DNA of 47,411 bases from Patescibacteria group bacterium (GCA_030917445.1 JAUPUR010000016.1:1-47411), one strand, 5' to 3'. Positions 3,222-44,019 are shown, numbered from the stretch's first letter. Numbers and translations are program-made. Notes: a model not told the origin generated them from the letters alone.

Positions 3222-4925
3222 CTACACCTCAATTATTACAGGAAGAACAAGAGGTCTTCGTCTAAATTTTCTAAAAATATGCTTACTTGATACCTCTTCC
3301 AATTGTTTTCTCAAATGCACCCAGTTAGTCACTCTCCCTTTTTTACTTGAAAGTACTGTTTTAATTTCTTTCATCAGTGTACCCTGGAGCATTTCACTTT
3401 CTTTTGGTAAAAAACCTCTTTCAATGATATCTGGTGTACCAGATAACTGACCGTCAGAAGCATTTATCTCAATCATCAAAATAATAATACCGTCTTTTGC
3501 CAGTTTCTCTCTATCTCTGAGAACAAATCCCTCAACTTCCTCACCTGAAACTTGATCAACATAAACATTCTTTGTCTGAATTCTTCTACCAAATGTTATT
3601 CCTTCTTTGCTAAAAATGACTTCTTGTCCATTTTCAAGAAGAAGAACATCTTTTGCTTTATACCCCATTTTCATGGCGAGTTTTTGATATCCCAAAAGAT
3701 GCTTATAATTCCCACTAATAGGTGTAATGTAGCGAGGTTTTATAAGTGACATCATCAAGAGATGGTCTTGTTGTGATCCGTGACCTGATACATGATAGAG
3801 AGTTCCCTGCCCAGAGGTCAAAACTGTTGCTCCTCTTTTGGCGATTGTATCTATCAGCTGATTGACAGGCTCTTCATTTCCAGGAATAGGATCTGCGGAA
3901 AAGATGACAATGTCATCAGGTGTTAATTTAACATCTCGATGCTCTCCTTCTGCAATTCGAGTTAGCGCAGAATTTTCCTGACCTTGACTCCCAGCTGCAA
4001 TCATTACAACTTGTGAATCTGGATAATTTGGTAGATGTTCTAGTTCAATAATTGTTCCATCTTTAACTTCTAAATACCCTGCACGCTTTGCAACATCTGC
4101 AACTTTGATTAGCGACCTTCCAACAAAGCAAACTCTTCTCTTAAAGCGTTCAGAGGCAGCAATTATTTGATTTATACGAGCAACATTTGACGAATATGTT
4201 GTAACAATCAGCTTTCCCTTACAGTGTTGGAGCGCATTCTCAAATGATTGCTGTAATCCATCTTCACTTGGAGTGTGTCCTGGTCTATCCGAACCAAGAG
4301 AATCAGTAAGCATAGCCAACACCCCCTCATTCCCAACTTTAACAATACTTTGAAAATCCATACGTTGTTGATCATGGGGAGTAAGATCTATTTTAAAATC
4401 ACTCCCATGATAAAAAATACCTGCAGGAGTACGAATAACAATATTAGTACTATCTGGAACAGAGTGAGTAATTCGAATTAAATTAATAGTAAAACTACCC
4501 AGTGAAAGAGGTTTGTCATGGAATTCAACAGTTTTCACACTTGGATGCATCTTAAATTCTCTTAATTTTTCATTTGTCAGCGCAGCAGTAAAAGGTGATG
4601 CAAAAACAGGAATCTGGGGAGGTAGTTGTGGGAGGATATATGGAACAGCTCCAATATGATCTTCGTGGCCATGGCTCAAAATCATACCTACAATTTTTTT
4701 CTTTGTTTGAAGCAGATAAGTTATATCAGGAAGCAAGAGATCAACACCTAACATTGAAGCATCTGCAAAACCTATTCCACAATCAACAATGAGTATTTCA
4801 TCTTTGTATTCATAAACATACATGTTTTTTGTGACATCTTCCATTCCACCAAGTGGAATAAGAGAAAGGGAGGGTGTATTGGACACTCTTTGTGGTGGGT
4901 TTTGGTTTGTTTTTTCCATATCCAT
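3222..4925 (-). CDS. rnj: Ribonuclease J (metallo-beta-lactamase / beta-CASP)
   Basis: HGHEDHIGAVPYIL motif and LIPLGGMEDVTKNMYVYEY..ILIVDCGIGF N-terminus, about 560 aa. The ORF-track start at 4937 is TTG. In-frame ATGs are at 4925 and 4919, and 4919 fits a leaderless start. Confidence 0.92.
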   Translation of the reverse strand: MDMEKTNQNPPQRVSNTPSLSLIPLGGMEDVTKNMYVYEYKDEILIVDCGIGFADASMLGVDLLLPDITYLLQTKKKIVGMILSHGHEDHIGAVPYILPQLPPQIPVFASPFTAALTNEKLREFKMHPSVKTVEFHDKPLSLGSFTINLIRITHSVPDSTNIVIRTPAGIFYHGSDFKIDLTPHDQQRMDFQSIVKVGNEGVLAMLTDSLGSDRPGHTPSEDGLQQSFENALQHCKGKLIVTTYSSNVARINQIIAASERFKRRVCFVGRSLIKVADVAKRAGYLEVKDGTIIELEHLPNYPDSQVVMIAAGSQGQENSALTRIAEGEHRDVKLTPDDIVIFSADPIPGNEEPVNQLIDTIAKRGATVLTSGQGTLYHVSGHGSQQDHLLMMSLIKPRYITPISGNYKHLLGYQKLAMKMGYKAKDVLLLENGQEVIFSKEGITFGRRIQTKNVYVDQVSGEEVEGFVLRDREKLAKDGIIILMIEINASDGQLSGTPDIIERGFLPKESEMLQGTLMKEIKTVLSSKKGRVTNWVHLRKQLEEVSSKHIFRKFRRRPLVLPVIIEV

Positions 4926-4963: not shown

Positions 4964-6124
4964 TTACCATTGAGGTAAATATTCTTTCAAATTAGTATCA
5001 TTGACTCTTACAGCTGTAACCTTACCTTCAACAATCTGACGTGCCACTTTTCGGCACATTCCTTGAATTGTTCTTTCAAGTGATCGAATTCCAGAGTCAA
5101 AACCCAAAGGACGAATAACACCTGGCCATACTGTTTCATCAATGACGAGATTTTGATCACTGAGACCTGCTTCTGTTCGAATTTTGTTAAATAAATATTT
5201 CTTAGCAATCACAATTTTTTCTTCGTCTGTATATGATGGCATTTGAATAATCTCCAGACGATCAAGAACAGCAGTAGAGATACTACTAGTATTATTGGCA
5301 GTAGCAATGAATAATACATTTGAAAGGTCAAATGGATAATCAATATAATGATCAGTAAAAGCGAAATTTTGCTCTGGATCTAAAAGCTCTACAAGAACAC
5401 CCATAATATCTGCACGCGCTGACTCCGTTACACGATCTAATTCATCAAGGAGAATAACTGGGTTACTTGACCTTGCATGAAAAAGTTTTTTAGTAACAAA
5501 TCCAGGCTCTGCATCAGGGAACGCTTTTGATTGACCACGGAGTGCTCGTGAGTCTGCCATTCCTCCAAATGGAATTCGCTCAAACTTTTTACCCAATGCT
5601 TCTGCAACTGATGAGGCAAGTGTGGTTTTACCTGTGCCAGCCAGTCCTACCAAACATAGAATTGGTGCTCTTTGGACAATGTCCTGTCTTTGTTGTTTCA
5701 TATTTAAAATAATAGTAGCTAGATAATCTAAGATACGGTTTTTAATGACATCTAAACCATAATGATGGTTGTCCATCACTTCTTTTGCCTTTACAAGATC
5801 AAGAGTATCTTGCGTATGTATTCCCCATGGGAGACCGACAACCCAATTAACATAATTTGCTGTATTTTCATATTCAAGTATATAATTTGCGCTCATAAAT
5901 CCAGAACTTGCTCTTAATAGTGCAAGTCTCGATACTCGTTCAAGAAGGTTTTGTTTCAAGACATCCGGAAGCTGAGCTTTTTCAACTCTTTCACCTAGTT
6001 TTCTAATTTGATCATTGGACTCACCTTTGCCTGTGGTTGTTGTAAAAGAAGATGTCGATGTATTCTGTTGTTGTGGAGTTGATCCATCAGCAACAGGAAA
6101 TGTAGGTAGGGCAGAATCTATCAT
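4964..6124 (-). CDS. Lon-family AAA+ ATPase module lacking both the Lon N-domain and the protease domain
   Basis: Colinear with Lon from GLPWG..HHYGLDVIKNRILDYLA through Walker A GLAGTGKT, Walker B VILLDELD and LLDPEQNFAFTDHY to SLERTIQGMCRKVARQ. It stops at ..LKEYLPQW, where Lon normally continues into the Ser-Lys protease domain. Confidence 0.8.
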   Translation of the reverse strand: MIDSALPTFPVADGSTPQQQNTSTSSFTTTTGKGESNDQIRKLGERVEKAQLPDVLKQNLLERVSRLALLRASSGFMSANYILEYENTANYVNWVVGLPWGIHTQDTLDLVKAKEVMDNHHYGLDVIKNRILDYLATIILNMKQQRQDIVQRAPILCLVGLAGTGKTTLASSVAEALGKKFERIPFGGMADSRALRGQSKAFPDAEPGFVTKKLFHARSSNPVILLDELDRVTESARADIMGVLVELLDPEQNFAFTDHYIDYPFDLSNVLFIATANNTSSISTAVLDRLEIIQMPSYTDEEKIVIAKKYLFNKIRTEAGLSDQNLVIDETVWPGVIRPLGFDSGIRSLERTIQGMCRKVARQIVEGKVTAVRVNDTNLKEYLPQW

Positions 6125-9806: not shown

Positions 9807-11267
9807 TTATTCATGGGATATTACCACATCTCCTACCTGAAAGTCAAGCAAAGGGGAGATAATTATGCCTGCTTCATTACCCTTTTCTATCTTAGATATT
9901 GGATTTTTACCAACACGAAGTGAGTTAATTTGAGTCTCACCAATAACCTCATCTCCACGCATGATTCTAGCCTTGTCACCTCGAGCGATTCTCCCATCAA
10001 GAACCTGAATTCCAAGTGCAAATGTTTTTTCAAATGGAAATTTTGCTAGTACCCTTGCTGTACCATAAATCTGCTCTATCATCGCAAGTGCTTTCCCTTC
10101 TAAAACCTCAGAAATCTCGTCCAATAGTTCATAAATAATAGTATAATTTTTCATCAGAACTTTCTCTGTTCGCGCAAATTTTGCAACCTCTGGTCTTATT
10201 TTTATTCCAAATCCAATAATAAGCGCACCAGTTGATTTAGCCATAAGAACATCAGCTTCAGCAATTTCACCTGTTTTTTGTGTAATTATATTTGCTTTTT
10301 TTGGAAGTGCTTGAATAATAGCCTCAAGTGAACCTTCTGTATCTGCCACAAGTATCATAGTTAACTCATCTCCAACTTTTCGTGCTGCGAAGGCCTCTTC
10401 TAGAGTTAAAGATGCTTGAATCTTCTGAGCATCTTGTATAGCTTCATGAACATTTTTTGAAATAATACTTCCAACACTTGGAACTGTTGAAAAGCCACTG
10501 ACTTCAGCTGCCTGACCAATGGTCACTTCTGATACTTGTTTGCCATCATCCGTGACAAGTGATCTTACTCTAAAGCTCCCATTTTCAGAAAATACATCAT
10601 CGCGAACACGCAATGTTCCATCCTTAATTATCACAGTTGCTCTTGGCCCACTTTTTGAATCTAATTTTGATTCAATAATAATTGCTCGTAAGTCTGCATC
10701 TGGTTTTGCAGTTGTCGGATGATCATTTTCGCTCATTTGCTGTACAAGAAGTATAAGATCCAAGAGTTCTTTTATGTTTGTTTGTGTTTTTGCCGAGACT
10801 TCAATTACTGGAACATCTCCACCCATTCCTTCAAGAAGAATATTTTCACTTAAGAGTTGTTGTTTTACTTTTGTGGGATTTTTGGTAGGAAGATCAGACA
10901 TAGTAAGAACGACTATAAATGGAAGCCCTGATGTTTTTAACAGCTGAATACTTTCCCGTGTTTGAGGCATAATACCATCGATCGAGGAAATAATGAGAAG
11001 ACAAATATCTGCAGCTTGGGCTCCTCTTGATCGCATTTTAGTAAATGCTTCATGACCGGGAGTGTCTATAAAAGTTATCTGTCTTTTAACTTCATCATGT
11101 AAAATCTCAACTGAAGATGCTCCTATTTTCTGAGTAATACCACCATGTTCACGCTCTGCAATAGATGATTGGCGAATAGCATCAAGTAGTGTTGTTTTAC
11201 CATGGTCAACATGACCTAAAACGGCTACGACTGGAGGATAAAATGTTGTTGAATTTTCTGTTGCCAT
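9807..11267 (-). CDS. infB: Translation initiation factor IF-2, short form
   Basis: G-domain VAVLGHVDHGKTTLLDAIR, DTPGHEAF. The ORF-track start at 11300 is TTG and abuts the nusA stop. The first ATG is at 11267. Confidence 0.93.
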   Translation of the reverse strand: MATENSTTFYPPVVAVLGHVDHGKTTLLDAIRQSSIAEREHGGITQKIGASSVEILHDEVKRQITFIDTPGHEAFTKMRSRGAQAADICLLIISSIDGIMPQTRESIQLLKTSGLPFIVVLTMSDLPTKNPTKVKQQLLSENILLEGMGGDVPVIEVSAKTQTNIKELLDLILLVQQMSENDHPTTAKPDADLRAIIIESKLDSKSGPRATVIIKDGTLRVRDDVFSENGSFRVRSLVTDDGKQVSEVTIGQAAEVSGFSTVPSVGSIISKNVHEAIQDAQKIQASLTLEEAFAARKVGDELTMILVADTEGSLEAIIQALPKKANIITQKTGEIAEADVLMAKSTGALIIGFGIKIRPEVAKFARTEKVLMKNYTIIYELLDEISEVLEGKALAMIEQIYGTARVLAKFPFEKTFALGIQVLDGRIARGDKARIMRGDEVIGETQINSLRVGKNPISKIEKGNEAGIIISPLLDFQVGDVVISHE

Positions 11268-36151: not shown

Positions 36152-37015
36152 TTATTCCTCTTTTCTCGCATATTGACTACTAATCCAACCTTCATCCCCA
36201 GTGGTTAATTTAATTTTGTACCAACCAGGAGCTTCATCTAAAATATCAAACGTATCACCTGGATTCACACGACCGATTTCATCAGAAGATGTTGATGCTG
36301 TTTGTCTAACTCTCAAAAATCCATTTGGTGTTTGAAGGATTGTTATTTTTGTAGGCAAAGAAACTGGAGTAATAGTGGCAGATGGAGAGGCTGTTGGACT
36401 CACTGTAGGCGTTGGCGTTGCGATAACACCATCTTCATCTACCCCGAGGTAAACTGATGCAACTAATTTATATCCATTTGGTGTGCGAATTCTTACTCTT
36501 TTTTCCGTGTAACCAGTTTTTTTAAGAATTATTTCATGATCAGACTCTGTAACATCTTTTAAAAGAATAGGTGAGAACCCCGATGGAGTATTATCAAGAA
36601 GGACTTCTGATTTATCTGGTTTCGAGATAACAAGTAGCTCCCTTTTGTTACCCTCCTTTAACGGCTCCAGAGTGATAATACTTCCTTCACTAGTTGCTCC
36701 TTTTCCAAATTTTCTATCAACAACTGTAAGTACTGATTTAGAAATTGTGATCTTTTCTTGAAACTCTGAAAATCCTCCAGAAAGAGGTACTATCCTTATT
36801 GTATACTCACCAGTTCTGAGCATATCTTTGGAGTCACATTTGCAAAGTGGAGTTTTTCCAATTGATTTTCCATTTATAAAAACCTCACTCTGAGGCGAAG
36901 ATGTCACCTGCAATGCTCCTTTTTCATTTCCTCTTAAAATAATTGACTGAACAATAAGAAAAGCAACCGAAGCAAAAATAAATGAAGGTATAAGAATAAG
37001 AAGAGCTTTTTTCAT
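36152..37015 (-). CDS. Anchored surface protein with two PEGA-like domains, PT linker and C-terminal SH3b-like domain
   Basis: Signal anchor, SSPQSEVFINGKSIGKTPL and SKPDKSEVLLDNTPSGFSP (PEGA-type). Linker TPTPTVSPTASPSATITP, then GFLRVRQ..GDTFDILDEAPGWYKIKL (SH3b). Confidence 0.7.
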   Translation of the reverse strand: MKKALLILIPSFIFASVAFLIVQSIILRGNEKGALQVTSSPQSEVFINGKSIGKTPLCKCDSKDMLRTGEYTIRIVPLSGGFSEFQEKITISKSVLTVVDRKFGKGATSEGSIITLEPLKEGNKRELLVISKPDKSEVLLDNTPSGFSPILLKDVTESDHEIILKKTGYTEKRVRIRTPNGYKLVASVYLGVDEDGVIATPTPTVSPTASPSATITPVSLPTKITILQTPNGFLRVRQTASTSSDEIGRVNPGDTFDILDEAPGWYKIKLTTGDEGWISSQYARKEE

Positions 37016-37065
37016 TGATAATACAGAGTAGTACTATACCAGATGGTTCATGCTTCGTAAATAAT

Positions 37066-39324
37066 TTAAGCTTTCACAATACCAAAAACCTCAATCTCTC
37101 CACCACAGTACTTTATTATCCTGTCACATGCATCTTTAAGTGTCTTTTCTATTTGATCTGGAGAGATATCATATATTCCATCTACATTTACATAAAGATT
37201 TTTTGTCTCAAGTGTGACTGCAGTTCTTTTACTATCTCGGAAATTGAAATCGATATTATATCCACCAACTTTATCAAAATAAGCGATCTCTGTTGATTTA
37301 TACGAAGTCTCTTCCGAATCACCTAAAAGCTCTATTTTCTCTCCCTCTTGTGCAAATCTTAAAACTGTAGGGAAAAGTATAGAGTCAAAATCAAACGCTC
37401 CTATGGAAATTTTACTTTCAAGTACCACCATATTATATGCATCAACACAGGTATTAACGGTGTAGAGACCTTTTCCTGTCGCCAACCGTCTCAGAAGAGC
37501 TTCAGGGGACGGTCTTCGAGAATGATAATCAATTCCCATTTCTTTATAAAGTTTTCTATATTGCAATACCTCAGGAATTGTATTTATATCTTCAGTTGTA
37601 AGTGAAGAAAATGAACTCACTATTCTTTCTTTTTCTTCTTCTAAGTTTTTATCTATCTTTTCAATTGTGACACCTTTAATAACTGCAATACCTACTGATA
37701 TACTTGGAAATTTCTCAGAAACTTTCTGATCTATATGAAAATATCCTGTGTTTTTTAAAAGTGTTATCGGTGCATCGTTATTTTGCTTTAAAGATATATT
37801 CGAAACATCCTCAAATCGGGAACGAACAAAATCTTTATCAAGTGATAAGATAAGCCAACCTGCTTTTGGCCCATGTGATTTCCCAAGCAACGCCTGATAT
37901 AAAGCACCAAATGCATCTTTAGATGGAACATTTAATTCCTTTGACTTTTCATAAATTGCTTTTTGAAATGATTCAGGATCCCATTCTTCTAGCATCATGT
38001 CACTAACTTCTTTAAGAAATTTCTTTTGTAAATCATTCAAATCTTTCGCAGAAAGGGGGATCTCTTTTTGCACGGTAAATTTCTCATTTTCAGAAGCAAA
38101 TCTATCAACCCAAATACGCGCATATTTTGCCCATTCTTCGAGACCTTCTTTCTCAATATATGACTTCATATTAGGCATCTGGACAAACTGTGCTAGTGCT
38201 GAAAAACGGATTTGGGGAGGAAGTGTAATACTTTCATTCACCTGAGAAAGCTCAAAGATTCTTGCCATTTCCTCATCTGAATTTGACTCGTAAGCCAAAG
38301 CATATCTTTGGTATTCGTCAAAAAGTTTTGGGATCACATCTGGTTCATATGGATCAAAATTAGTTTGTTTTCTAATATCCATTTTAACAATTAAAAATCT
38401 GACAAGTTCTGGCGGAAGGATTTCTACCATATCAGCAGCAGCAAAACCACGACCTTTTGAAGATGACATTTTTTTACCTCCAATCAACATAAACTCATAA
38501 CTAACGGGGTAGGGTACATCATAATGGAATACTCTCTCACAAAAAAGTTTTGCCATATCATGTGATCCACCGGCACTCATATGATCTTTTCCAGCTCCTT
38601 CAACAGTTACACCAATTGCTTGCCACTTAGCTGGCCACTCAACTTTCCATGGAAGCTTTCCTCTCATCTCTAATTCGTCACTAAAGGGTGATACCTTACC
38701 TTCGTATCCACAACCCTTAGTCCACTCTGTTGCATCGACTGGACATCTATAAAAGACTTTTTCACCATCCCAATTAAAAACTCTTGTTGTTGAAACTTTC
38801 TGGCAATTTTCACAGTACACCTGAAAGGGATACCAATCAGATGGAAGATCTTTTTTATACATCTCTTTATAGATCTTTCTTATTTCCTCAGCGTTATCAA
38901 GAACAACTTTTATTCCAGGATTCATTTTCCCTGAGGTATACAGATCTTTAGTCCAAATTATTTCAGGATGGCAACCAATTTTGTTAAATGCTCCTTTAAA
39001 CTCATACGCATAATACTCAGCAAAATCTTTATACCCATCTACTGGAGATGGAATTTTGTATAAAGGCATACCTAAATATTTTTCAAAAATCTCTCGAGGT
39101 AAATAAGAAGGGATATCATCCATCGGATCGTGATTTTCAAAAACGTATGTATATTTTGTATTTACTCCTGCATCTTTAAGTGATTTATAAACGAGGTCAT
39201 GAAAAACAACACCAAGTAACGATCCTACGTGAACTCTTCCTGAGGGTGTTTTCATATCATCTACCCACTCAAGTGGTAAATTTCTTTTCTTTAATTGTTG
39301 TGCTACTTCGTCTGCCCAAAACAT
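37066..39324 (-). CDS. lysK: Class I lysine--tRNA ligase fused to a C-terminal B3/B4 (PheRS-beta editing-domain-like, COG3382-type) domain
   Basis: Class I LysRS: TPSGRVHVGSLLG (HIGH-type), KMSSSKG (KMSKS), ~525 aa. The extra ~225 aa read IPEVLQYRKLYKEMGIDYHSRRPSPEALLRRL..LYTVNTCVDAYNMVVLESKISIGAFDFD..FRDSKRTAVT. The ORF-track start at 39369 is TTG, and the first ATG is at 39324. Confidence 0.88.
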   Translation of the reverse strand: MFWADEVAQQLKKRNLPLEWVDDMKTPSGRVHVGSLLGVVFHDLVYKSLKDAGVNTKYTYVFENHDPMDDIPSYLPREIFEKYLGMPLYKIPSPVDGYKDFAEYYAYEFKGAFNKIGCHPEIIWTKDLYTSGKMNPGIKVVLDNAEEIRKIYKEMYKKDLPSDWYPFQVYCENCQKVSTTRVFNWDGEKVFYRCPVDATEWTKGCGYEGKVSPFSDELEMRGKLPWKVEWPAKWQAIGVTVEGAGKDHMSAGGSHDMAKLFCERVFHYDVPYPVSYEFMLIGGKKMSSSKGRGFAAADMVEILPPELVRFLIVKMDIRKQTNFDPYEPDVIPKLFDEYQRYALAYESNSDEEMARIFELSQVNESITLPPQIRFSALAQFVQMPNMKSYIEKEGLEEWAKYARIWVDRFASENEKFTVQKEIPLSAKDLNDLQKKFLKEVSDMMLEEWDPESFQKAIYEKSKELNVPSKDAFGALYQALLGKSHGPKAGWLILSLDKDFVRSRFEDVSNISLKQNNDAPITLLKNTGYFHIDQKVSEKFPSISVGIAVIKGVTIEKIDKNLEEEKERIVSSFSSLTTEDINTIPEVLQYRKLYKEMGIDYHSRRPSPEALLRRLATGKGLYTVNTCVDAYNMVVLESKISIGAFDFDSILFPTVLRFAQEGEKIELLGDSEETSYKSTEIAYFDKVGGYNIDFNFRDSKRTAVTLETKNLYVNVDGIYDISPDQIEKTLKDACDRIIKYCGGEIEVFGIVKA

Positions 39325-39349
39325 GTGCTTTATTATAAGTGATTGCTCG

Positions 39350-40315
39350 CTATTTCGAAAGTTTTTCAAAACCTTTCAAAAATGATGTTGCCATCTCCCC
39401 TAAATCACTTATATTGTATCCTCCTTCCTGAACAAGTAGAGTCGGTACTTTTAATGTTGAGATGTCTTCAGCCATCGATTGATAATATGGTATTGTTAAT
39501 TGAAATCCCCCAATTGGATCGTGTTCGTATGTGTCAAATCCTAAAGACACAATGAGATAATCGGGTTTAAATATCCGAATATCTGAAAGAGCACGCTGTA
39601 AAAATTTCTGATATTTTTGAGGTGTCGTTCCCAACGGAAGAGGATAATTCATTGTATACCCTTCTCCCTCTCCCCGTCCTTTTTCATCACTAAAACCTGA
39701 ACTATATGGGAATTTTACTTTTGGATCTGCATGAATTGAAACGTACAATACATCTGATCTGTCGTAAAAAAGATTTTGTGTTCCATTTCCGTGATGGAAA
39801 TCGACGTCAAGAATTGCTACTTTTCCATGTTGTGCTAAATAATGCGCTGCAATCGCGGCATTATTAAAGTAACAATAACCCCCCATCATTTTTTGCTCAG
39901 CGTGATGACCAGGAGGTCGACAAAGTGAATAAACAATATTCTCACCACCGATAATGAGTTCTGCTCCTGTTAACGCAACATTGACAGAACTATATGCTGC
40001 ACCATAAGTGCCTGCAGTAATAGGAGAGTATGTATCCATTATAAAATATGAGGGATACAATATCTCGTCATCACGTAATCTTTTTGACCTTGTTCTGACA
40101 AAATCAACATATACTTTTTGATGAAGCGCATGAATATGATCTAATGAAAATCTTCTTGGTGACATAAAAGACGTAAAATTATTATTTTTTAACGTCGTCA
40201 CTATTGACTCAATGCGATCAGCTTTTTCAGCGTACGACTCTTTAACCCCATCATATATCTCATATGGAGGATTATGTTCTTTATGTTTTTTTGTATAAAT
40301 AATTGGTAATTTCAT
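39350..40315 (-). CDS. Histone-deacetylase-family Zn amidohydrolase (protein-lysine or acetylpolyamine deacetylase)
   Basis: CRPPGHHA, DVDFHHGNGTQ, GFDTYEHDP. SD GGAGG lies 7 nt upstream of the ATG. Confidence 0.9.
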   Translation of the reverse strand: MKLPIIYTKKHKEHNPPYEIYDGVKESYAEKADRIESIVTTLKNNNFTSFMSPRRFSLDHIHALHQKVYVDFVRTRSKRLRDDEILYPSYFIMDTYSPITAGTYGAAYSSVNVALTGAELIIGGENIVYSLCRPPGHHAEQKMMGGYCYFNNAAIAAHYLAQHGKVAILDVDFHHGNGTQNLFYDRSDVLYVSIHADPKVKFPYSSGFSDEKGRGEGEGYTMNYPLPLGTTPQKYQKFLQRALSDIRIFKPDYLIVSLGFDTYEHDPIGGFQLTIPYYQSMAEDISTLKVPTLLVQEGGYNISDLGEMATSFLKGFEKLSK

Positions 40316-40359
40316 AAAATTTCCTCCTGCCAGCCGGCCGGACTGACAGTTCTCTGATA

Positions 40360-41394
40360 CTAGCTCCTTGTCATTCTTAGCATTGTATCAACTTGCACTG
40401 GGTCATAAAAGCTTTCTATGACATCCCGTGGCATATACATAAATGTGAAGTCACGAAGACTTCCTTCTGGGACATCTTGTCCATCGTTAACAAGAACATT
40501 TTGGACAATAATTTGAGGTGCACGCTCTCTACTTGGGACTATCAATCCTGCTCCTGCACCTGCACGATCTGATCGAGACTGAAAATTGCATTCAGCATAA
40601 ATAAGTGGCAATCCATTCCCTCCATGCCTAAAATCTGAAAGAATTCGACTATTAAGCATAGCGAGAGTCGCTGTCATAAGACCCCTTCCTGCATATTCAT
40701 CTCTTGTTCTCCATTCAGTATTTTCAACAAGATGAAGGTCACCTTCTCTCCCAGGGATTGATAATCTTTCAGCCATTGCTGCACTTACGATAGTACCATT
40801 ATCATGAACAGCACTAAACCAGACATCTCTATCAGTTGGGTCAGTTGTTCTAGATCCATCAAGCCTTCGCCTAAGTGCATCTACCTCATGTCTCTCCCAA
40901 CCAAAAGTCGGTCCCCAAAGACTATGTAATTGATCAACCTGATCCTCTTGAATAGAATCACTAAAATGTAGTCCGGATTCAACGACACTTCTTACCCTTT
41001 CAAGTGGATTACTCCGCATAACATCTGACTCCGTTGCTGATATCATCTGTTCTGTCGACGTTAATTGCTGCCTACTCGCTGAATTTTGTGCAAAATACAC
41101 TAAATATGCATTTTCTTGAGAAAATTCTTGGAGTGGTACAGCAACTTCTAATAAATGCTCAAACTCTGTTCCTGCAACAGCTTCAACAACTTCTTCACTT
41201 ACTACACCACGAAGTACCCCACGAGAAATCTGCGGATGATTTTCCACAATGGAGCTCACTCTCCTCACGTTTCTTCCGACTTCATCGAAACTTGAAGAAA
41301 AACGAGTAGCGTTTCCATAAATTCGATCATATGGTCTTCTTGTAACTCCAGCACTTCCTGTACTAGAAAATATTTGTTCTTTTTCTTGATTCAT
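40360..41394 (-). CDS. Hypothetical 344-aa protein, nearly lysine-free, C-terminal half GNAT-acyltransferase-like
   Basis: Strong SD AAAGGAGGTG with a 6-nt spacer before ATG 41394 (the ORF-track TTG at 41421 is unlikely). GNAT-like strand/helix pattern VHDNGTIVSAAMAERL..LHLVENTEWRTRDEYAGRGLMTATLAML..LIYAECNF..AGAGAGLIV. One Lys against roughly three dozen Arg. Confidence 0.75.
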   Translation of the reverse strand: MNQEKEQIFSSTGSAGVTRRPYDRIYGNATRFSSSFDEVGRNVRRVSSIVENHPQISRGVLRGVVSEEVVEAVAGTEFEHLLEVAVPLQEFSQENAYLVYFAQNSASRQQLTSTEQMISATESDVMRSNPLERVRSVVESGLHFSDSIQEDQVDQLHSLWGPTFGWERHEVDALRRRLDGSRTTDPTDRDVWFSAVHDNGTIVSAAMAERLSIPGREGDLHLVENTEWRTRDEYAGRGLMTATLAMLNSRILSDFRHGGNGLPLIYAECNFQSRSDRAGAGAGLIVPSRERAPQIIVQNVLVNDGQDVPEGSLRDFTFMYMPRDVIESFYDPVQVDTMLRMTRS

Positions 41395-41416
41395 ATTTTT
41401 CACCTCCTTTTTCAAA

Positions 41417-41444
41417 CACAAAAAAACCCCTTCTGAGAGGGGTT
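41417..41444 (-). terminator. Intrinsic-terminator-like hairpin B (AACCCCT-ctcaga-AGGGGTT + TTTTTgtgttt)
   Basis: 7-bp stem with a U-tract on the minus strand. It ends ~7 nt before the SD of the lysine-free ORF. Confidence 0.6.
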
Positions 41445-41455
41445 ACTTTTACACG

Positions 41456-41478
41456 AAAAAAGCCCCTCTTATGAGAGG
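41456..41478 (-). terminator. Weaker terminator-like hairpin A (CCTCT-cata-AGAGG ggc TTTTTT)
   Basis: 5-bp stem followed by a T6 run. Its 3' arm AGAGGGG can alternatively pair with CCCCTCT of hairpin B. Confidence 0.4.
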
Positions 41479-41516
41479 TTTTTCTTGTTTGCTACTAATG
41501 TAACACGTGTTTGCAT
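41469..41516 (-). other. Candidate 15-codon leader mini-ORF MQTRVTLVANKKNLS*
   Basis: The ATG is 9 nt downstream of a consensus -10 box. Two adjacent Lys codons (AAG AAA) lie just 5' of hairpin A. The stop TAA sits in the loop of hairpin A. Confidence 0.25.
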
Positions 41517-41525
41517 AAGAAATTT

Positions 41526-41553
41526 ATTATAGTCGAGAAATATTTTTTGTCAA
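41526..41553 (-). promoter_or_regulatory. Consensus sigma70-type promoter TTGACA-16-TATAAT, -35 overlapping the murB TGA stop
   Basis: Minus strand reads cTTGACAaaaaatatttctcgacTATAATaaatttcttATG. Both hexamers are perfect. Confidence 0.6.
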
Positions 41554-42518
41554 GTTGTCTCTTGAATCATTACTTCAGGAGTAGGATAAAACCCAAATGT
41601 TTGATGAAATGTATCTTTAATATCATTGATAATCTCTATGATATCTTCTGACCTTGCCTGACCTACATTCACGATATAATTTGAATGTTTTGGAGACACT
41701 TGTGCACCTCCGACCTTTTTCCCTGTGAAACCAAGTCTGTGGATAATATATCCCATGGAGATCTTTCCATGCCATTTTTCATCACTTATCTTCTTAACAT
41801 CCGGCCAAATACCTAGTATCGTGTCCACCTCATCCTTTTTAACAATATTCATATATACTGAACCGCAAGATGGATATTCCATTGGATGGTTTTTTTCACG
41901 ATATGCAATATTTTCATGATATGTCTGCCATGCTTTTTCTACTTCTTCTTTTGTTCCAGCTCGTAACTGAAAAGTAACTGATGTTATAAGAAATGAAGGA
42001 TTATCTTTAAAGATACTGTGTCTATAGGAAAAGCTGCACTCCTCATTCTTAAAGGTATATAGACGTTTATCATCTGATACATAATCAATTGATGATACTT
42101 CTAAAACAGTATTTCTTATCTCTGAACCAAATGCCCCAGCATTCCCCCTCACTGCACCTCCTACCGTACTTGGAAGGCCACCAGCCCACTCAAGGCCAAC
42201 CAAACCTTTTCTAAGTGCATACTGTAGAAGAGTGTCCATACTTTCACCTGCAAAAACTTTTATAACATCTTTACCAACAAGTTCACATCCAGAACCATCC
42301 CCATGTAACCATAAAACTAATCCATCAAACTGCTTATCGGAAAGAAGAAGATTTGCTCCCATTCCGAGGACAAGAAGATTCTCTATTTTATTGTCTTTTC
42401 TATACTCAAGTGCATTTCTTATATCTTGTTCAGACGTCACTTCAATAACAGTTTGTGCTTTACCACCAATACGATAATAAGAAAGAGAAGAAAGAGGAAT
42501 GTTATAATGCAGTTTCAT
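41550..42518 (-). CDS. murB: UDP-N-acetylenolpyruvoylglucosamine reductase
   Basis: FAD-binding YYRIGGKA, GMGANLL, GGAQVSPKHSNYIVN. 322 aa. Confidence 0.93.
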   Translation of the reverse strand: MKLHYNIPLSSLSYYRIGGKAQTVIEVTSEQDIRNALEYRKDNKIENLLVLGMGANLLLSDKQFDGLVLWLHGDGSGCELVGKDVIKVFAGESMDTLLQYALRKGLVGLEWAGGLPSTVGGAVRGNAGAFGSEIRNTVLEVSSIDYVSDDKRLYTFKNEECSFSYRHSIFKDNPSFLITSVTFQLRAGTKEEVEKAWQTYHENIAYREKNHPMEYPSCGSVYMNIVKKDEVDTILGIWPDVKKISDEKWHGKISMGYIIHRLGFTGKKVGGAQVSPKHSNYIVNVGQARSEDIIEIINDIKDTFHQTFGFYPTPEVMIQETT

Positions 42519-42536: not shown

Positions 42537-43004
42537 CTACTTTACGGAGACGACTGTGTAGAGTACTTTTCCTGCAGGAGCTTCAACTTCAACTTGTTCA
42601 CCAATTTTTTTACCCATTAAAGCTTTGCCGAGAGGAGACTCATGTGAAATCTTTTTTTCTGCAGGATCTGCTTCCCACTCTCCAACAAGTCTATAAACTT
42701 CTTCTTTGCCATTAATATGAATTGTTACTTCAGATCCAAGCACAACACTAGCGTGTTCCCCATTGTTTTCTTCAATAATCTGTACTTGCTTGAGCATTTC
42801 TTCAAGTTCGTCAATTCTACCATCAATAAATGCAAGTTCTTCTCTTGCTGCTGAGTACTCAGCGTTTTCAGAAAGATCTCCTTGATTTCGCGCATCAGAG
42901 ACTCTTACTACCACTTCCGGGCGTTTTATTTTAGCAAGTTCTTCATGCTCTTTTTTTAACTCTTCAAGTCCATCTTTTGTGAGGTATATTTTTTTAGAAT
43001 CCAT
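42537..43004 (-). CDS. greA: Transcription elongation factor GreA
   Basis: YLTKDGLEELKKEHEEL...GDLSENAEYSAAREELAFIDGRIDELE coiled coil plus a C-terminal FKBP-like domain. Confidence 0.95.
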   Translation of the reverse strand: MDSKKIYLTKDGLEELKKEHEELAKIKRPEVVVRVSDARNQGDLSENAEYSAAREELAFIDGRIDELEEMLKQVQIIEENNGEHASVVLGSEVTIHINGKEEVYRLVGEWEADPAEKKISHESPLGKALMGKKIGEQVEVEAPAGKVLYTVVSVK

Positions 43005-43010
43005 AACTTA

Positions 43011-43046
43011 AATAAAGAAAATCTCTCTTTTTTTGCAGAGAGATTT
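43011..43046 (-). terminator. Terminator-like hairpin in the greA 5' leader (AAATCTCTCT-gcaaaaaa-AGAGAGATTT + TCTTTATTT)
   Basis: Perfect 10-bp stem at 43019-43046 plus a U-rich tail. It lies between the predicted greA promoter and the greA ATG, which is 14 nt downstream. Confidence 0.5.
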
Positions 43047-43067
43047 GTTATCCTTAATTCAAAAACG

Positions 43068-43096
43068 AGTATAAAGAAATAAAAAATGTTTGTCAA
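43068..43096 (-). promoter_or_regulatory. Promoter of greA-murB (TTGACA-17-TATACT)
   Basis: Minus strand reads gtaTTGACAaacattttttatttcttTATACTcg. Confidence 0.55.
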
Positions 43097-43155
43097 TACA
43101 AGGCTAAACGACCTATAAAAAATAGGTTAACCTCATAAAAGCAGTATTGATTTAG

Positions 43156-44019
43156 TTATAATAAATTTGCTTTTTTTATTCTTCGATAATATTCAGATAA
43201 AACAATCATTTTCTTATCATTTGGATGAAAAAATAGTGCATTGTTAGTCACATTTTCAGTTGTTTGATGTCTTTTAATGAAGCTAAGTTGAACTATCCTT
43301 AAGAGATATTCAAACCACTGAAGATATTTCATAGTACTCATATTTTTACGAATAAATTTGCGACTTTTCCCAGTAAGACTATTTGCAAGAAAGTCACCAA
43401 CCCATATATTTTGACGGAGAAATCGCTTGTAAGTACCACCTCTTTCAAATAGTGGTTCAATTTGAGCTATCTCACGAGCAGTATAGATATTTCTTGTCTT
43501 TCTAGAAAACATTAATTCTTCTTCAGAAAGGAACATATTGAGACAGATTTTATCAGGAGCATATTTTTGATTTCTCCTCCTGAGATTTCCTGTTAGACGT
43601 AAAAATAAAATACAAAAAAAACGAGTAAAGTAGATATATTTTTTTTGAGTAATAATAAAGAAATCGATATCACTTTCTCCTGAAGCTGCACCTGCCCCAA
43701 GACTTCCACTCAAACCAATAAAATAGATTGTCGGTATCCATGAAAGATTTTCAGCTATTTTTTGTGCTTTTTCTAGCTTGGCAGCAAAAATATCTTCATT
43801 TTTTTGTCGAAAAATAGCAGTATTCTTCCTTCCTTTCAGAAAAAAATAATCACCATTTCTGTCTATCTCATTGGCAATACTCAAGTATTTTTCAATTGTT
43901 TTTTTAGATGTTTTTTTTGAAGAATGAAAATAATAGTATATTTCATCTAAAGTTAACGGAAATGAGAAAATATCACTATAGTGGAGTGTTTGTAATAATT
44001 TATTTTTACCATCGCCCAT
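43156..44019 (-). CDS. Hypothetical protein with Pol-beta-superfamily nucleotidyltransferase motif
   Basis: GLSGSLGAGAASGESDIDFFII fits the G[SG]-x(9-13)-DxD signature. ATG 44019 overlaps the SBP gene stop by 14 nt (the ORF-track start at 44052 is TTG). Confidence 0.62.
   Translation of the reverse strand: MGDGKNKLLQTLHYSDIFSFPLTLDEIYYYFHSSKKTSKKTIEKYLSIANEIDRNGDYFFLKGRKNTAIFRQKNEDIFAAKLEKAQKIAENLSWIPTIYFIGLSGSLGAGAASGESDIDFFIITQKKYIYFTRFFCILFLRLTGNLRRRNQKYAPDKICLNMFLSEEELMFSRKTRNIYTAREIAQIEPLFERGGTYKRFLRQNIWVGDFLANSLTGKSRKFIRKNMSTMKYLQWFEYLLRIVQLSFIKRHQTTENVTNNALFFHPNDKKMIVLSEYYRRIKKANLL

Follow-up and report, generated by a model that had tools for sequence, protein, structure and literature searches.

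A predicted lysine-codon attenuator upstream of a lysine-poor GNAT-domain protein and a deacetylase in Patescibacteria

Gene order at the locus and among its relatives

The window analysed here is a stretch of 47,411 nucleotides from a Patescibacteria group bacterium (GCA_030917445.1 JAUPUR010000016.1:1-47411), and the subject of this study is a candidate lysine-responsive operon located on its minus strand between positions 41,553 and 37,066. In the direction of transcription, this region contains a sigma-70-type promoter, a small open reading frame (ORF) with two adjacent lysine codons, two T-tailed hairpins and three genes, all on the same strand. The first gene, ORF1 (40360..41394), encodes a protein of 344 amino acids (aa) and its ATG is preceded by GGAGG; the second (39350..40315) encodes a 321-aa zinc amidohydrolase of the histone deacetylase (HDAC) family, hereafter the deacetylase; and the third (37066..39324) encodes a class I lysyl-tRNA synthetase (LysRS) of 752 aa. 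The coordinates, the gene calls and the spacers of 44 nt (ORF1 to deacetylase) and 25 nt (deacetylase to LysRS) given in an initial annotation of this DNA were all correct, and the scan detected no terminator-like site in either spacer, as had also been stated there. The two terminator-like hairpins between the promoter and ORF1 had been under-described.

For comparison, 16 related loci were taken from species-representative genomes and 32 from metagenomes, which together with the window make 44 distinct loci; individual loci are referred to by handles such as L001. All the loci are metagenome-assembled sequence, the flanks of the genes were examined, and every named source of these loci and of the ORF1 family belongs to the Candidate Phyla Radiation (CPR)/Patescibacteria. 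When conservation of the gene neighbourhood, proposed by the initial annotation as a check on the grouping of the three genes, was followed across these loci, the deacetylase gene was found directly after ORF1 in 40 of the 41 testable loci. Of the 45 loci compared, 31 have a gap of -23 to +12 nt between these two genes, a closeness that suggests translational coupling. A LysRS gene adjoins the pair in 17 of the 32 testable loci, either as class I LysRS directly downstream (10 loci) or as class II LysRS (TIGR00499, 497 bits against a cutoff of 428) downstream or upstream (7 loci). LysRS begins right at, or within, the 3' end of the deacetylase gene in L032 and L037. The LysRS-linked loci are scattered over the ORF1 tree; for example, the window and L001 have the class I enzyme and their sister L018 has the class II enzyme. 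The other flanking genes, including murB, greA and further syntenic ones, are each present in at most 8 of the 49 loci, and the flanks are often on the opposite strand. That one gene pair adjoins two unrelated LysRS classes in different lineages counts as strong evidence from gene neighbourhood. As the two enzymes have the same function without being homologous, their recurrence beside the pair would be difficult to account for unless the pair had some functional or regulatory connection with lysine charging.

The leader ORF, the hairpins and the predicted switch

The promoter (41526..41553) consists of TTGACA (41553-41548) and TATAAT (41531-41526) separated by 16 nt, and matches the consensus at 12 of 12 positions, the only such match in the 5 kb scanned for promoters and terminators. 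Promoter-like sites overall showed no excess in this span, with 17 found against 16.9 expected from shuffles. The upstream murB gene ends at 41550, 3 nt within the -35 hexamer. The ATG of a leader-peptide ORF of 15 codons (41469..41516; MQTRVTLVANKKNLS followed by a stop codon) is located 9 nt past the -10 hexamer and lacks a Shine-Dalgarno sequence, so that the ORF would be effectively leaderless. Its regulatory lysine codons AAG AAA (41481..41486) lie 3 nt upstream of the 5' arm of hairpin 1, and its stop codon falls in the loop of the same hairpin.

Among the 37 distinct loci with enough upstream sequence, 31 contain a leader ORF with 2-5 clustered lysine codons, of which 30 were analysed in detail. 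The lysine cluster lies directly before the 5' arm of hairpin 1 and, in Saccharibacteria-type leaders, inside that arm. The leader of L001 (MQTRMTIVANKKNLS), whose ORF1 is 76% identical to that of the window, differs from the window leader by synonymous or conservative changes, and its stem carries a compensatory change from TCA-TAA-GA to TCG-TAA-CGA; further leader peptides among the related loci are MNNISCFNAVSKKAKKTAQGGMLLA, MQILCIQILDSKKKPLKGLSLLLR, MAIYLVSKNKTKKNPNRGVLVVD and MNFVSNISKKTKKPF. In 22 of the 30 loci, a promoter that matches the consensus at 9-12 of 12 positions (at least 10 in 19 of them) lies ahead of the leader ORF and ends 7-14 nt before its ATG, also at loci where the upstream gene is a different one. 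The ATG of the lysine frame was the first ATG past the best -10-like hexamer in 23 of the 30 leaders, and in 4 of the remaining 7 the only earlier ATG shares the lysine frame. Furthermore, the order of promoter, small ORF, hairpin 1, hairpin 2, Shine-Dalgarno sequence and ORF1 is kept at loci where the upstream gene is different or on the opposite strand, as seen by inspection of L002, L003, L010 and L013, which argues that the hairpins are not merely the terminator of murB.

Some manual curation of the leaders preceded an unbiased scan, which required, in this order, a small ORF containing a two-residue cluster, a terminator and a gene. The scan returned 30 matches for lysine clusters against 2-14 for seven other amino acids, and the 14 matches for leucine may partly be the same leaders, many of which contain LL. 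Lysine makes up 16.9% of the leader residues, and its codon is AAG in 62% of the cases in leaders against 24% in genes (p = 1e-16). The lysine-codon leader noticed in the initial annotation is thus a genuine 15-codon ORF that is conserved among relatives and is embedded in the architecture of an attenuator.

Hairpin 1 (CCTCTC-ATAA-GAGGGG followed by CTTTTTT; 41455..41478, stem-loop 41478-41463) was identified by the terminator scan and by folding and is conserved among the related loci. It pairs region 1 with region 2 of the leader and would work both as an anti-antiterminator and as a first terminator. Hairpin 2 (AACCCCT-CTCAGA-AGGGGTT followed by seven T; 41418..41444, stem-loop 41444-41425) pairs region 3 with region 4, is a near-duplicate of hairpin 1, ends 11 nt before the Shine-Dalgarno sequence of ORF1 and is predicted to be the decisive intrinsic terminator. 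Since regions 1 and 3 both resemble CCYCTC and regions 2 and 4 both resemble GAGGGG, the 1:2, 2:3 and 3:4 pairings are all possible, and the alternative 2:3 helix (GAGGGGCUUUU with AAAAG..CCCCUC; 41437..41468), the predicted antiterminator, is present in the minimum-free-energy fold of the window. Hairpin 2 is kept across 22 leaders with compensatory changes in 4 of its 6 consensus pairs. RNAalifold on the MAFFT alignment of the 22 leaders recovered hairpin 2 alone, as the lengths of hairpin 1 and of the spacers vary too much.

The choice between these pairings was followed by a co-transcriptional masking test, in which region 4 was taken as not yet made and a ribosome footprint of approximate size was imposed, with dinucleotide shuffles of the intervening sequence as the control. 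With the footprint at the first lysine codon of the window leader, region 3 was paired with region 2 at 5 of 5 nt (dG of -13.2 for the 2:3 helix against -10.1 for the terminator), and with the footprint at the stop codon this pairing was reduced to 0 of 5 nt. Over the 30 leaders, region 2 sequestered region 3 in 24 when the ribosome was placed at the first lysine codon and in 8 when it was placed at the stop codon; for the former placement, the shuffles gave an expectation of 9.1 (p = 3e-8). When plain minimum-free-energy masking was used with the first-lysine footprint, the final terminator was lost in 19 of the 30 leaders, the window not being one of them.

The leader region was compared with the known attenuators. 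It contains a short ORF with clustered regulatory codons, an intrinsic terminator between this ORF and the first structural gene, here as two T-tailed stem-loops, and a mutually exclusive antiterminator predicted in silico. These hairpins fit the classic 1:2 / 2:3 / 3:4 attenuator, and all the structural features of the trpL/hisL/pheM class that can be searched for in silico were found in the sequence. Like the trpL, hisL, leuL, thrL and pheM attenuators, the leader has tandem controlling codons in a short ORF, four RNA segments with exclusive 1:2, 2:3 and 3:4 pairings and an intrinsic terminator placed directly before the structural genes, and like pheM-pheST it has the gene of the cognate aminoacyl-tRNA synthetase in the controlled neighbourhood. 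It differs from the trpL-type attenuators in having lysine codons, in a leader that starts 7-14 nt past the -10 hexamer with no Shine-Dalgarno sequence, in the T-run of hairpin 1 that would place two terminators in series, in its CPR hosts and in that the main controlled genes are not a biosynthetic pathway. In short, it departs from that class in three respects, namely in the amino acid that it would sense, in its leaderless start and in having terminators in tandem.

Leader-peptide attenuation is textbook knowledge for Trp, His, Leu, Thr, Ile/Val and Phe, and no lysine version was found; literature searches returned no prior account of a lysine leader peptide, of a CPR attenuator or of CPR lysine synthesis. 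Lysine control is usually ascribed to the L-box riboswitch or to T-boxes, and the L-box and the lysK T-box turn on lysC (aspartokinase) and LysRS genes during shortage of lysine or Lys-tRNA. The leader would do the same regulatory job, but by sensing through translation of lysine codons and not through direct binding of lysine or tRNA. An Rfam search (E <= 1) of positions 36500-42000 found no L-box, T-box or leader family, its best matches being three weak ones (E 0.066-0.33) to a retroviral element, a microRNA and a Yersinia sRNA, and no tRNA gene was found within the window. The nearest precedent for leaderless amino-acid-sensing small ORFs is in mycobacteria, where polycysteine leaderless short ORFs are cysteine-responsive attenuators (bioRxiv 10.1101/834739). 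The mycobacterial ORFs likewise are leaderless, lie 5' of an operon and tune it through clustered codons of a single amino acid, and differ in the amino acid, in the phylum and in that the mechanism predicted for the window is based on a terminator and an antiterminator (10.1101/834739). Judged from the window and its relatives, the lysine-codon, essentially leaderless attenuator appears to be the standard device from Microgenomates to Saccharibacteria, a large part of the bacterial tree whose gene regulation is almost uncharted and whose members are believed to rely on hosts for their amino acids.

The same type of leader also occurs at other genes. In L004 (MILNSIKLTKKTTKKALP) and L005 (MILNFIKLTKKQVKKLKKLLFRG), it precedes a gene for an aspartokinase catalytic domain (TIGR00657, 282 bits) located 3' of the deacetylase gene, and these genes lack ACT domains. 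Since other bacteria classically place aspartokinase under lysine control, these leaders provide a positive control, internal to the data set, for the signal that the leader responds to. The additional lysine leaders are located at 5318-5429 in L004, at 12036-12157 in L005 (also present in L020) and at 7032-7120 in L022, and the second leader of L022 (MRMQFTNMSKKNSS) precedes a lysine-poor 87-aa ORF that is followed by class I LysRS.

The six loci without a leader are L006, L011, L024, L025, L028 and L029. In four of them, a gene for a protein of ~217 aa is located divergently and immediately upstream (L006 9260-9913, L025 960-1601, L028 4196-4855 and L029 4260-4907); in L011 (4912-5562) it is found on the downstream side at a distance of a few genes, and L024 lacks it. 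In L046, the divergent gene (4051-4743) is present alongside a leader. Five of the six members of this protein family matched the ACT_7 and ACT_9 domains, and 13 of 14 matches of its profile in the PDB were regulatory domains of aspartokinases (3l76, 5e-5). In addition, the intergenic DNA beside the divergent gene contains inverted or direct repeats such as TGTATCAAACGATACA and GTTACA. With moderate confidence, we suggest from these sequence features that the ~217-aa ACT protein is an amino-acid-sensing regulator that replaces the attenuator, possibly a lysine-sensing transcription factor.

ORF1, the deacetylase and LysRS

ORF1 contains a single lysine (K5) in its 344 residues (0.3%) and 34 arginines (9.9%), when the means over all the 30 genes of the window are 6.9% lysine and 4.6% arginine. 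The other 29 genes range from 3.9% lysine, the next-lowest value after ORF1, to 10.3%, and the probability of finding one lysine or fewer in 344 residues was 5.5e-10, so that the avoidance of lysine claimed earlier for this protein was borne out. Of its arginine codons, 22 of 34 are AGA or AGG, which are a single transition away from AAA and AAG. The protein is acidic overall (pI 5.0), and the GC content of its gene is the highest in the window (0.41 against ~0.37). The family comprises proteins of ~345 aa, with 95 close clusters in the first search and 421 representatives at 50% identity, from Microgenomates (Blackburn-, Levy-, Woese-, Davies- and Roizmanbacteria) and Saccharibacteria. Its median lysine content is 2.8% against 7.5% in 264 neighbouring proteins, and arginine is roughly doubled. 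The lysine depletion persists across ORF1 lineages of 32-45% identity and members with 0-1 lysine occur in distant branches, and many members reach 4-7%. Thus, ORF1 would be an unusually clean case of a composition shaped by the nutrient that controls its own expression.

Some unrelated partners of ORF1 are also poor in lysine in some lineages, namely the class II LysRS (3.2-3.7%), a protein of cluster 19 (2.3-3.8%) and the 87-aa ORF (2.3%), and the deacetylase of Saccharibacteria-type loci contains 1.5-3.5% lysine. Neither cluster 19 nor the 87-aa ORF matched any family. The lysine-poor class II LysRS are those of L004 (1528-2997), L005 (8035-9507) and L018 (2483-3814), which have ~8% arginine and may be starvation-adapted versions; the other linked class II LysRS contain 7.6-9.8% lysine.

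An AlphaFold model of ORF1 built from 46 sequences (predicted local distance difference test score, pLDDT, of 92; predicted template modelling score of 0.91) divides the protein into an N-terminal alpha/beta domain (residues 1-142; 40969-41394) and a C-terminal domain of the GCN5-related N-acetyltransferase (GNAT) fold (residues 143-320; 40435-40968). With Foldseek, the latter matched GNATs at E ~2e-6, with target-normalised template modelling (TM) scores of ~0.7 for many of them and mostly between 0.5 and 0.7 overall. There were 464 PDB matches at E <= 0.001, and the best-scoring among the matches listed were GNATs; SpeG, Ard1/Naa and aminoglycoside acetyltransferases all matched and none stands out. 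The modelled order of elements in residues 143-320, beta1-alpha1-alpha2-beta2-4-alpha3-beta5-alpha4-beta6, is that of the GNAT fold. In agreement with this, PF13527 (Acetyltransf_9) was matched by 30 of the 46 members (best E = 1.9e-6); the window ORF1 itself scored 20.1 bits, under the 25-bit cutoff. In the acyl-CoA loop between beta4 and alpha3 (Q/R-x-x-G-x-G/A), the window has E-Y-A-G-R-G, and across the family the last glycine is largely conserved and the first is variable; E268 of this domain is among the invariant residues of ORF1. The motif-level GNAT call of the initial annotation, which would have fallen if the protein lacked an acyltransferase fold, is therefore now supported by structure.

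Most of the invariant residues of ORF1 are held by the N-terminal domain (G13, G16, R20, R24, Y26, N28, R58, R62, E83, N104 and R108), including five arginines, and from this cluster of arginines we infer that the acceptor substrate may be anionic. This domain had no significant fold match: when it was searched alone (pLDDT 85), the best E was 0.024 with TM <= 0.43 and the matches were scattered and weak, to GNATs and methyltransferases. A sequence search of the ORF1 profile against the PDB likewise found nothing (best E = 2.2), and NCBIfam had no match for ORF1 or for the deacetylase. Nor was the pairing of these two genes met with in the libraries and papers searched.

Two more specific assignments of ORF1 were tried and rejected. 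For a GNAT toxin, a single domain of ~170 aa with a small DNA-binding antitoxin is expected, and what was found is a 344-aa protein with an extra N-terminal domain whose partner is a 321-aa zinc hydrolase, an enzyme rather than an antitoxin; the precedent of TacT, AtaT and ItaT drawn in the initial annotation thus does not apply. The same is true of its other precedent, the tandem-GNAT transferases of the Fem/MprF type, since the matches to FemX and Sba18/Sbb17 had TM scores of 0.24-0.34 with a root-mean-square deviation of 11-12 A, the N-terminal domain gave nothing better than E = 0.024, and the Fem, MprF and DUF2156 Pfam families were matched by none of the 46 members. ORF1 is therefore a member of the GNAT superfamily that is neither a GNAT toxin nor a Fem/MprF enzyme.

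The deacetylase matched PF00850 at E = 1e-76 (258 bits), in keeping with its earlier assignment to the HDAC family. The motifs RPPGHH, DxH, DVDFHHGNG, GFDTY, EGGY and PIG are present in its sequence, the longer ones in its alignment to 9gkz, and it has the full HDAC catalytic set of His-His dyad, Asp/His/Asp zinc ligands and catalytic Tyr. Its closest structures are bacterial acetylpolyamine amidohydrolases (APAHs; PDB 9gkz at 1e-81, 6phr at 1.5e-74 and 3q9b at 9e-72), with APAH matches spanning E = 1e-81 to 3e-63. Two-domain HDAC6 chains matched at 1e-67 to 1e-70, and the closest of the single-domain protein lysine deacylases was HDAC15 (5zmp) at ~1e-39. The defining features of bacterial APAHs are the L2 loop, the R95-D163 salt bridge, the RPPGHH and EGGY motifs related to acetyl preference, and the PIS motif (PMC11532494). 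Like the APAHs of cluster 4 (9gkz, 3q9b and 6phr), the deacetylase has the zinc and catalytic residues, RPPGHH, EGGY and, at the PIS motif, the isoleucine gatekeeper, with PIG replacing PIS. It differs from them in that residues 85-104 of 9gkz, which make up the L2 loop with R95, have no counterpart, in that D163 aligns to a lysine and in its pairing with ORF1. Because of the former two differences, the head-to-head dimer that restricts APAHs to polyamines is unlikely in this enzyme, which is probably an APAH relative lacking the APAH means of excluding bulkier substrates.

Between ORF1 and the deacetylase gene, the window contains an intercistronic hairpin (CTGTCAG-TCCGGCCGG-CTGGCAG; 40327..40349) whose 3' arm overlaps the start of the deacetylase Shine-Dalgarno sequence. 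An equivalent GC-rich hairpin (CTGYCAG...CTGRCAG) is kept through compensatory changes in L001 (~11045-11075), L002 (~3665-3695) and L044 (~5935-5965), and such hairpins were found in the minority of loci with a gap of 43-52 nt between the two genes. The hairpin could act in translational coupling or in mRNA processing. In a separate observation, an M23-like protein of ~227 aa (cluster 23, cytoplasmic) adjoins ORF1 in L026 (1737-3500), L011 and L024, and in L026, the sole locus without the deacetylase, it occupies the place of that enzyme; its Pfam match was sub-threshold and it had no match in the PDB.

The third gene is confirmed as a class I LysRS (TIGR00467, 361.5 bits against a cutoff of 147.55; PF01921, E = 7e-90) with the appended editing-type domain reported earlier, a B3/4 domain at residues 589-741 (37102-37560; PF03483, 73.9 bits against a gathering score of 29.3). 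Among the linked class I enzymes, this fusion is found in the window, L001, L009 and L028 and is absent from five others of ~500 aa. The close homologues of the domain (50-69% identity; P0235-P0318) are stand-alone proteins of ~210-260 aa or are associated with LysRS, either behind the anticodon domain of the class I enzyme (PF19269 with PF03483) or, in P0244, P0251 and P0269, together with the class II core (PF03483 with PF00152). This pattern points to a B3/4 subfamily tied to lysine charging in both LysRS classes, with a role on tRNA(Lys), and editing of mischarged tRNA is a reasonable guess for that role.

The LysRS ATG has no Shine-Dalgarno sequence and is preceded at 7 nt by TATAAT (39332..39337), a probable promoter of its own. 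A -10-like hexamer is placed 6-7 nt before the LysRS ATG in the window, L001, L002, L009, L027 and L022 (TAGAAT in L022), so that the independent LysRS promoter, mentioned earlier as a caveat, is an arrangement shared by at least six loci. LysRS probably has a leaderless transcript of its own, which read-through of the attenuated operon would supplement. Taken with the leader ORFs, this arrangement suggests that these CPR genomes make routine use of leaderless mRNAs.

Lysine limitation and the competing explanations

The explanation that we favour, and hold to be probable with moderate confidence, is that of a lysine-limitation operon of CPR/Patescibacteria under a lysine-codon leader-peptide attenuator, in which the ORF1/deacetylase pair aids the supply of lysine. 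Transcription would start a few nucleotides before the ATG of the 15-codon leader. When Lys-tRNA(Lys) is plentiful, the ribosome would reach the stop codon within hairpin 1 and cover region 2, the 3:4 terminator would form, and transcription would end before ORF1. When Lys-tRNA(Lys) is scarce, the ribosome would stall at AAG AAA and cover region 1, leaving region 2 to pair with region 3; neither terminator would then form, and the polymerase would enter ORF1 and the deacetylase gene and maybe that of LysRS. ORF1 would be poor in lysine because it is made during the shortage of Lys-tRNA, and stalling in the first cistron would cut off the operon; a first cistron nearly free of lysine could be translated under the inducing condition and would spare the operon from polarity. 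The attenuator thereby flags a CPR-specific two-enzyme module as a likely part of the response to lysine limitation, and an in vivo response to lysine is what we infer from it.

In this explanation, ORF1 as an acetyl-CoA-type GNAT and the APAH-like zinc deacetylase would make up a two-step module that restores the supply of lysine or Lys-tRNA. Our leading guess is an N-acetyl-protected route of salvage or interconversion that ends with N-epsilon-deacetylation to lysine; since the deacetylase would prefer an acetyl group on straight alkyl amines, N-epsilon-acetyl-lysine to lysine is the natural last step, and the co-expression of an acetyltransferase with a deacetylase makes most sense if they are the two ends of such an acetyl-protected route. 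The acylating and de-acylating circuit tied to lysine that the initial annotation had proposed is kept here in its lysine theme, which extends well beyond the window, and not in its analogies to tRNA acylation. Acetyltransferases and deacetylases are also combined in one pathway or cycle in AcuA-AcuC of Bacillus, DapH/DapL and ArgA/ArgE, of which the Acu genes are clustered and the other two pairs are each under one regulon. However, AcuA is half the size of ORF1 and lacks its novel N-terminal domain, DapH is a hexapeptide-repeat enzyme, DapL and ArgE are M20 peptidases, and none of these is homologous to the ORF1/deacetylase pair. The DapH/DapL pair belongs to lysine synthesis, and replacement of it in the acetyl diaminopimelate branch was considered for ORF1 and the deacetylase and was down-weighted, as HDAC tunnels suit N-acetyl groups on unbranched alkyl amines and not alpha-N-acetyl amino acids such as alpha-N-acetyl-diaminopimelate; no dap gene other than aspartokinase was seen in the flanks of the loci.

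Several points weigh against the lysine-limitation operon. Termination, read-through and dependence on lysine are all predicted. The window leader holds just two lysine codons, in an AT-rich genome where lysine is common, and A-rich tracts that precede terminators can alternatively pair with the U-tract. A purely thermodynamic fold keeps the final terminator of the window despite the masking of region 1, so that its switch works solely by a kinetic, co-transcriptional argument; the choice in the trp attenuator is likewise kinetic. As the window deacetylase has 6.5% lysine and LysRS 9.3%, translatability without lysine fits ORF1 alone at this locus, and the co-regulation of LysRS, with its own -10 hexamer and no Shine-Dalgarno sequence, is uncertain. 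As to the chemistry, the GNAT P-loop motif of ORF1 is conserved in part, no third enzyme of a protect-modify-deprotect route is conserved nearby, the flanks show no lysine-pathway gene other than aspartokinase, and co-expression of an acetyltransferase with a deacetylase could be a futile cycle.

The first competing explanation takes ORF1 as a protein lysine acetyltransferase that avoids its own acetylation and the deacetylase as the eraser. Under lysine limitation, the two would reversibly switch some target, for instance acetyl-CoA synthetase, a translation factor or LysRS. A GNAT together with an HDAC-family enzyme in one operon is indeed the AcuA/AcuC arrangement, and the deacetylase lacks the polyamine-restricting loop. 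Bacterial APAH-type enzymes retain lysine-deacetylase activity, including on AcsA (PMC11532494), and the near-total loss of lysine from ORF1 resembles the 'lysine deserts' that prevent self-modification (PMC10169902). A gene for acetate-CoA ligase is located 1-3 genes upstream of ORF1 in L022 (1662-3416), L027, L028 and L046 (cluster 14); the L022 protein (NF003313, 805 bits) contains the SGKIMRR motif, the usual site of Acs acetylation, and this neighbour bears either on such a cycle or on the recycling of acetate to acetyl-CoA. However, this gene is near ORF1 in only 4 of the 44 loci, within a syntenic greA-murB block. The writer and the eraser would be co-transcribed and mostly translationally coupled, many ORF1 members tolerate 4-7% lysine, and it is not evident how lysine starvation would lead to protein acetylation. 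Avoidance of self-acetylation also leaves the lysine-poor class II LysRS, cluster 19 protein and 87-aa ORF unexplained, and as these are unrelated proteins under the same control, translation under starvation is favoured as the reason for the depletion. We therefore consider this cycle unlikely, though it deserves to be kept in mind.

Polyamine homeostasis, in which a SpeG-like ORF1 and an acetylpolyamine amidohydrolase would adjust the pools of cadaverine or other polyamines and thereby spare lysine, appears quite improbable. Cadaverine derives from lysine, the best solved relatives of the deacetylase are APAHs, and SpeG structures are among the top fold matches of the GNAT domain. Against these stand the absence of the L2 loop and of the salt bridge from the deacetylase, SpeG matches that are no better than those of many unrelated GNATs, an N-terminal domain whose five invariant arginines suit an anionic acceptor and not a polycation, the futile cycle that co-expression would create, and the linkage to LysRS, which it does not explain.

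We give equally little credence to a variant of the lysine-limitation operon in which the lysine content of the cistrons, and not separate promoters, would order writer and eraser as a codon-gated timer. Starvation would open the attenuator, only the lysine-free ORF1 would be translated, and an acetyl mark, whether carried by a metabolite, by the translation apparatus or by Lys-tRNA, would accumulate and keep the cell in a protected slow state; the return of lysine would let the lysine-containing deacetylase and LysRS of the same mRNA be made, and these would erase the mark and restart growth.

Direct action on Lys-tRNA(Lys), by acetylation as in TacT, AtaT and ItaT or by taking the lysyl group as in FemX and MprF, with the deacetylase or the B3/4 domain in reversal or repair, is very unlikely. 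It would account for the adjoining of both LysRS classes in 17 of 32 loci and for the association of the B3/4 domain with both, the invariant arginine cluster could bind RNA, and FemX and tRNA-dependent peptide synthases are among the fold matches of ORF1. However, these are the matches with the poor superpositions described above, the Fem and DUF2156 families are unrepresented among members that mostly match the acetyl-CoA-type PF13527, and the protein is acidic. No antitoxin-like partner is present and PADLOC gave no match, and we know of no HDAC enzyme that acts on alpha-N-acetyl aminoacyl esters. An attenuator that induces when Lys-tRNA is scarce also argues against an enzyme that consumes or blocks it, for which this would be a poor time.

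That the locus holds nothing special, its hairpins being murB terminators, its leader a chance A-rich ORF, its synteny inherited and its low ORF1 lysine the relic of a high-GC donor, is extremely unlikely, for although murB ends inside the -35 hexamer, tandem terminators after genes are common and ORF1 has the highest GC of the window, the leader is kept before ORF1 when the upstream gene differs or is on the opposite strand, its frame and lysine cluster are kept in 30 loci and exceed the controls of the scan, the gene pair is kept in 40 of 41 loci with two unrelated LysRS classes adjoining, and the depletion persists at 32-45% identity when most arginine codons are one transition from lysine.

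Apart from the operon, the lowest GC content of the window (0.29-0.30 against ~0.37) was found at 43001-44000, where a gene on the minus strand (43156-44019) encodes a protein of 287 aa with 9.8% lysine and 7.0% arginine.

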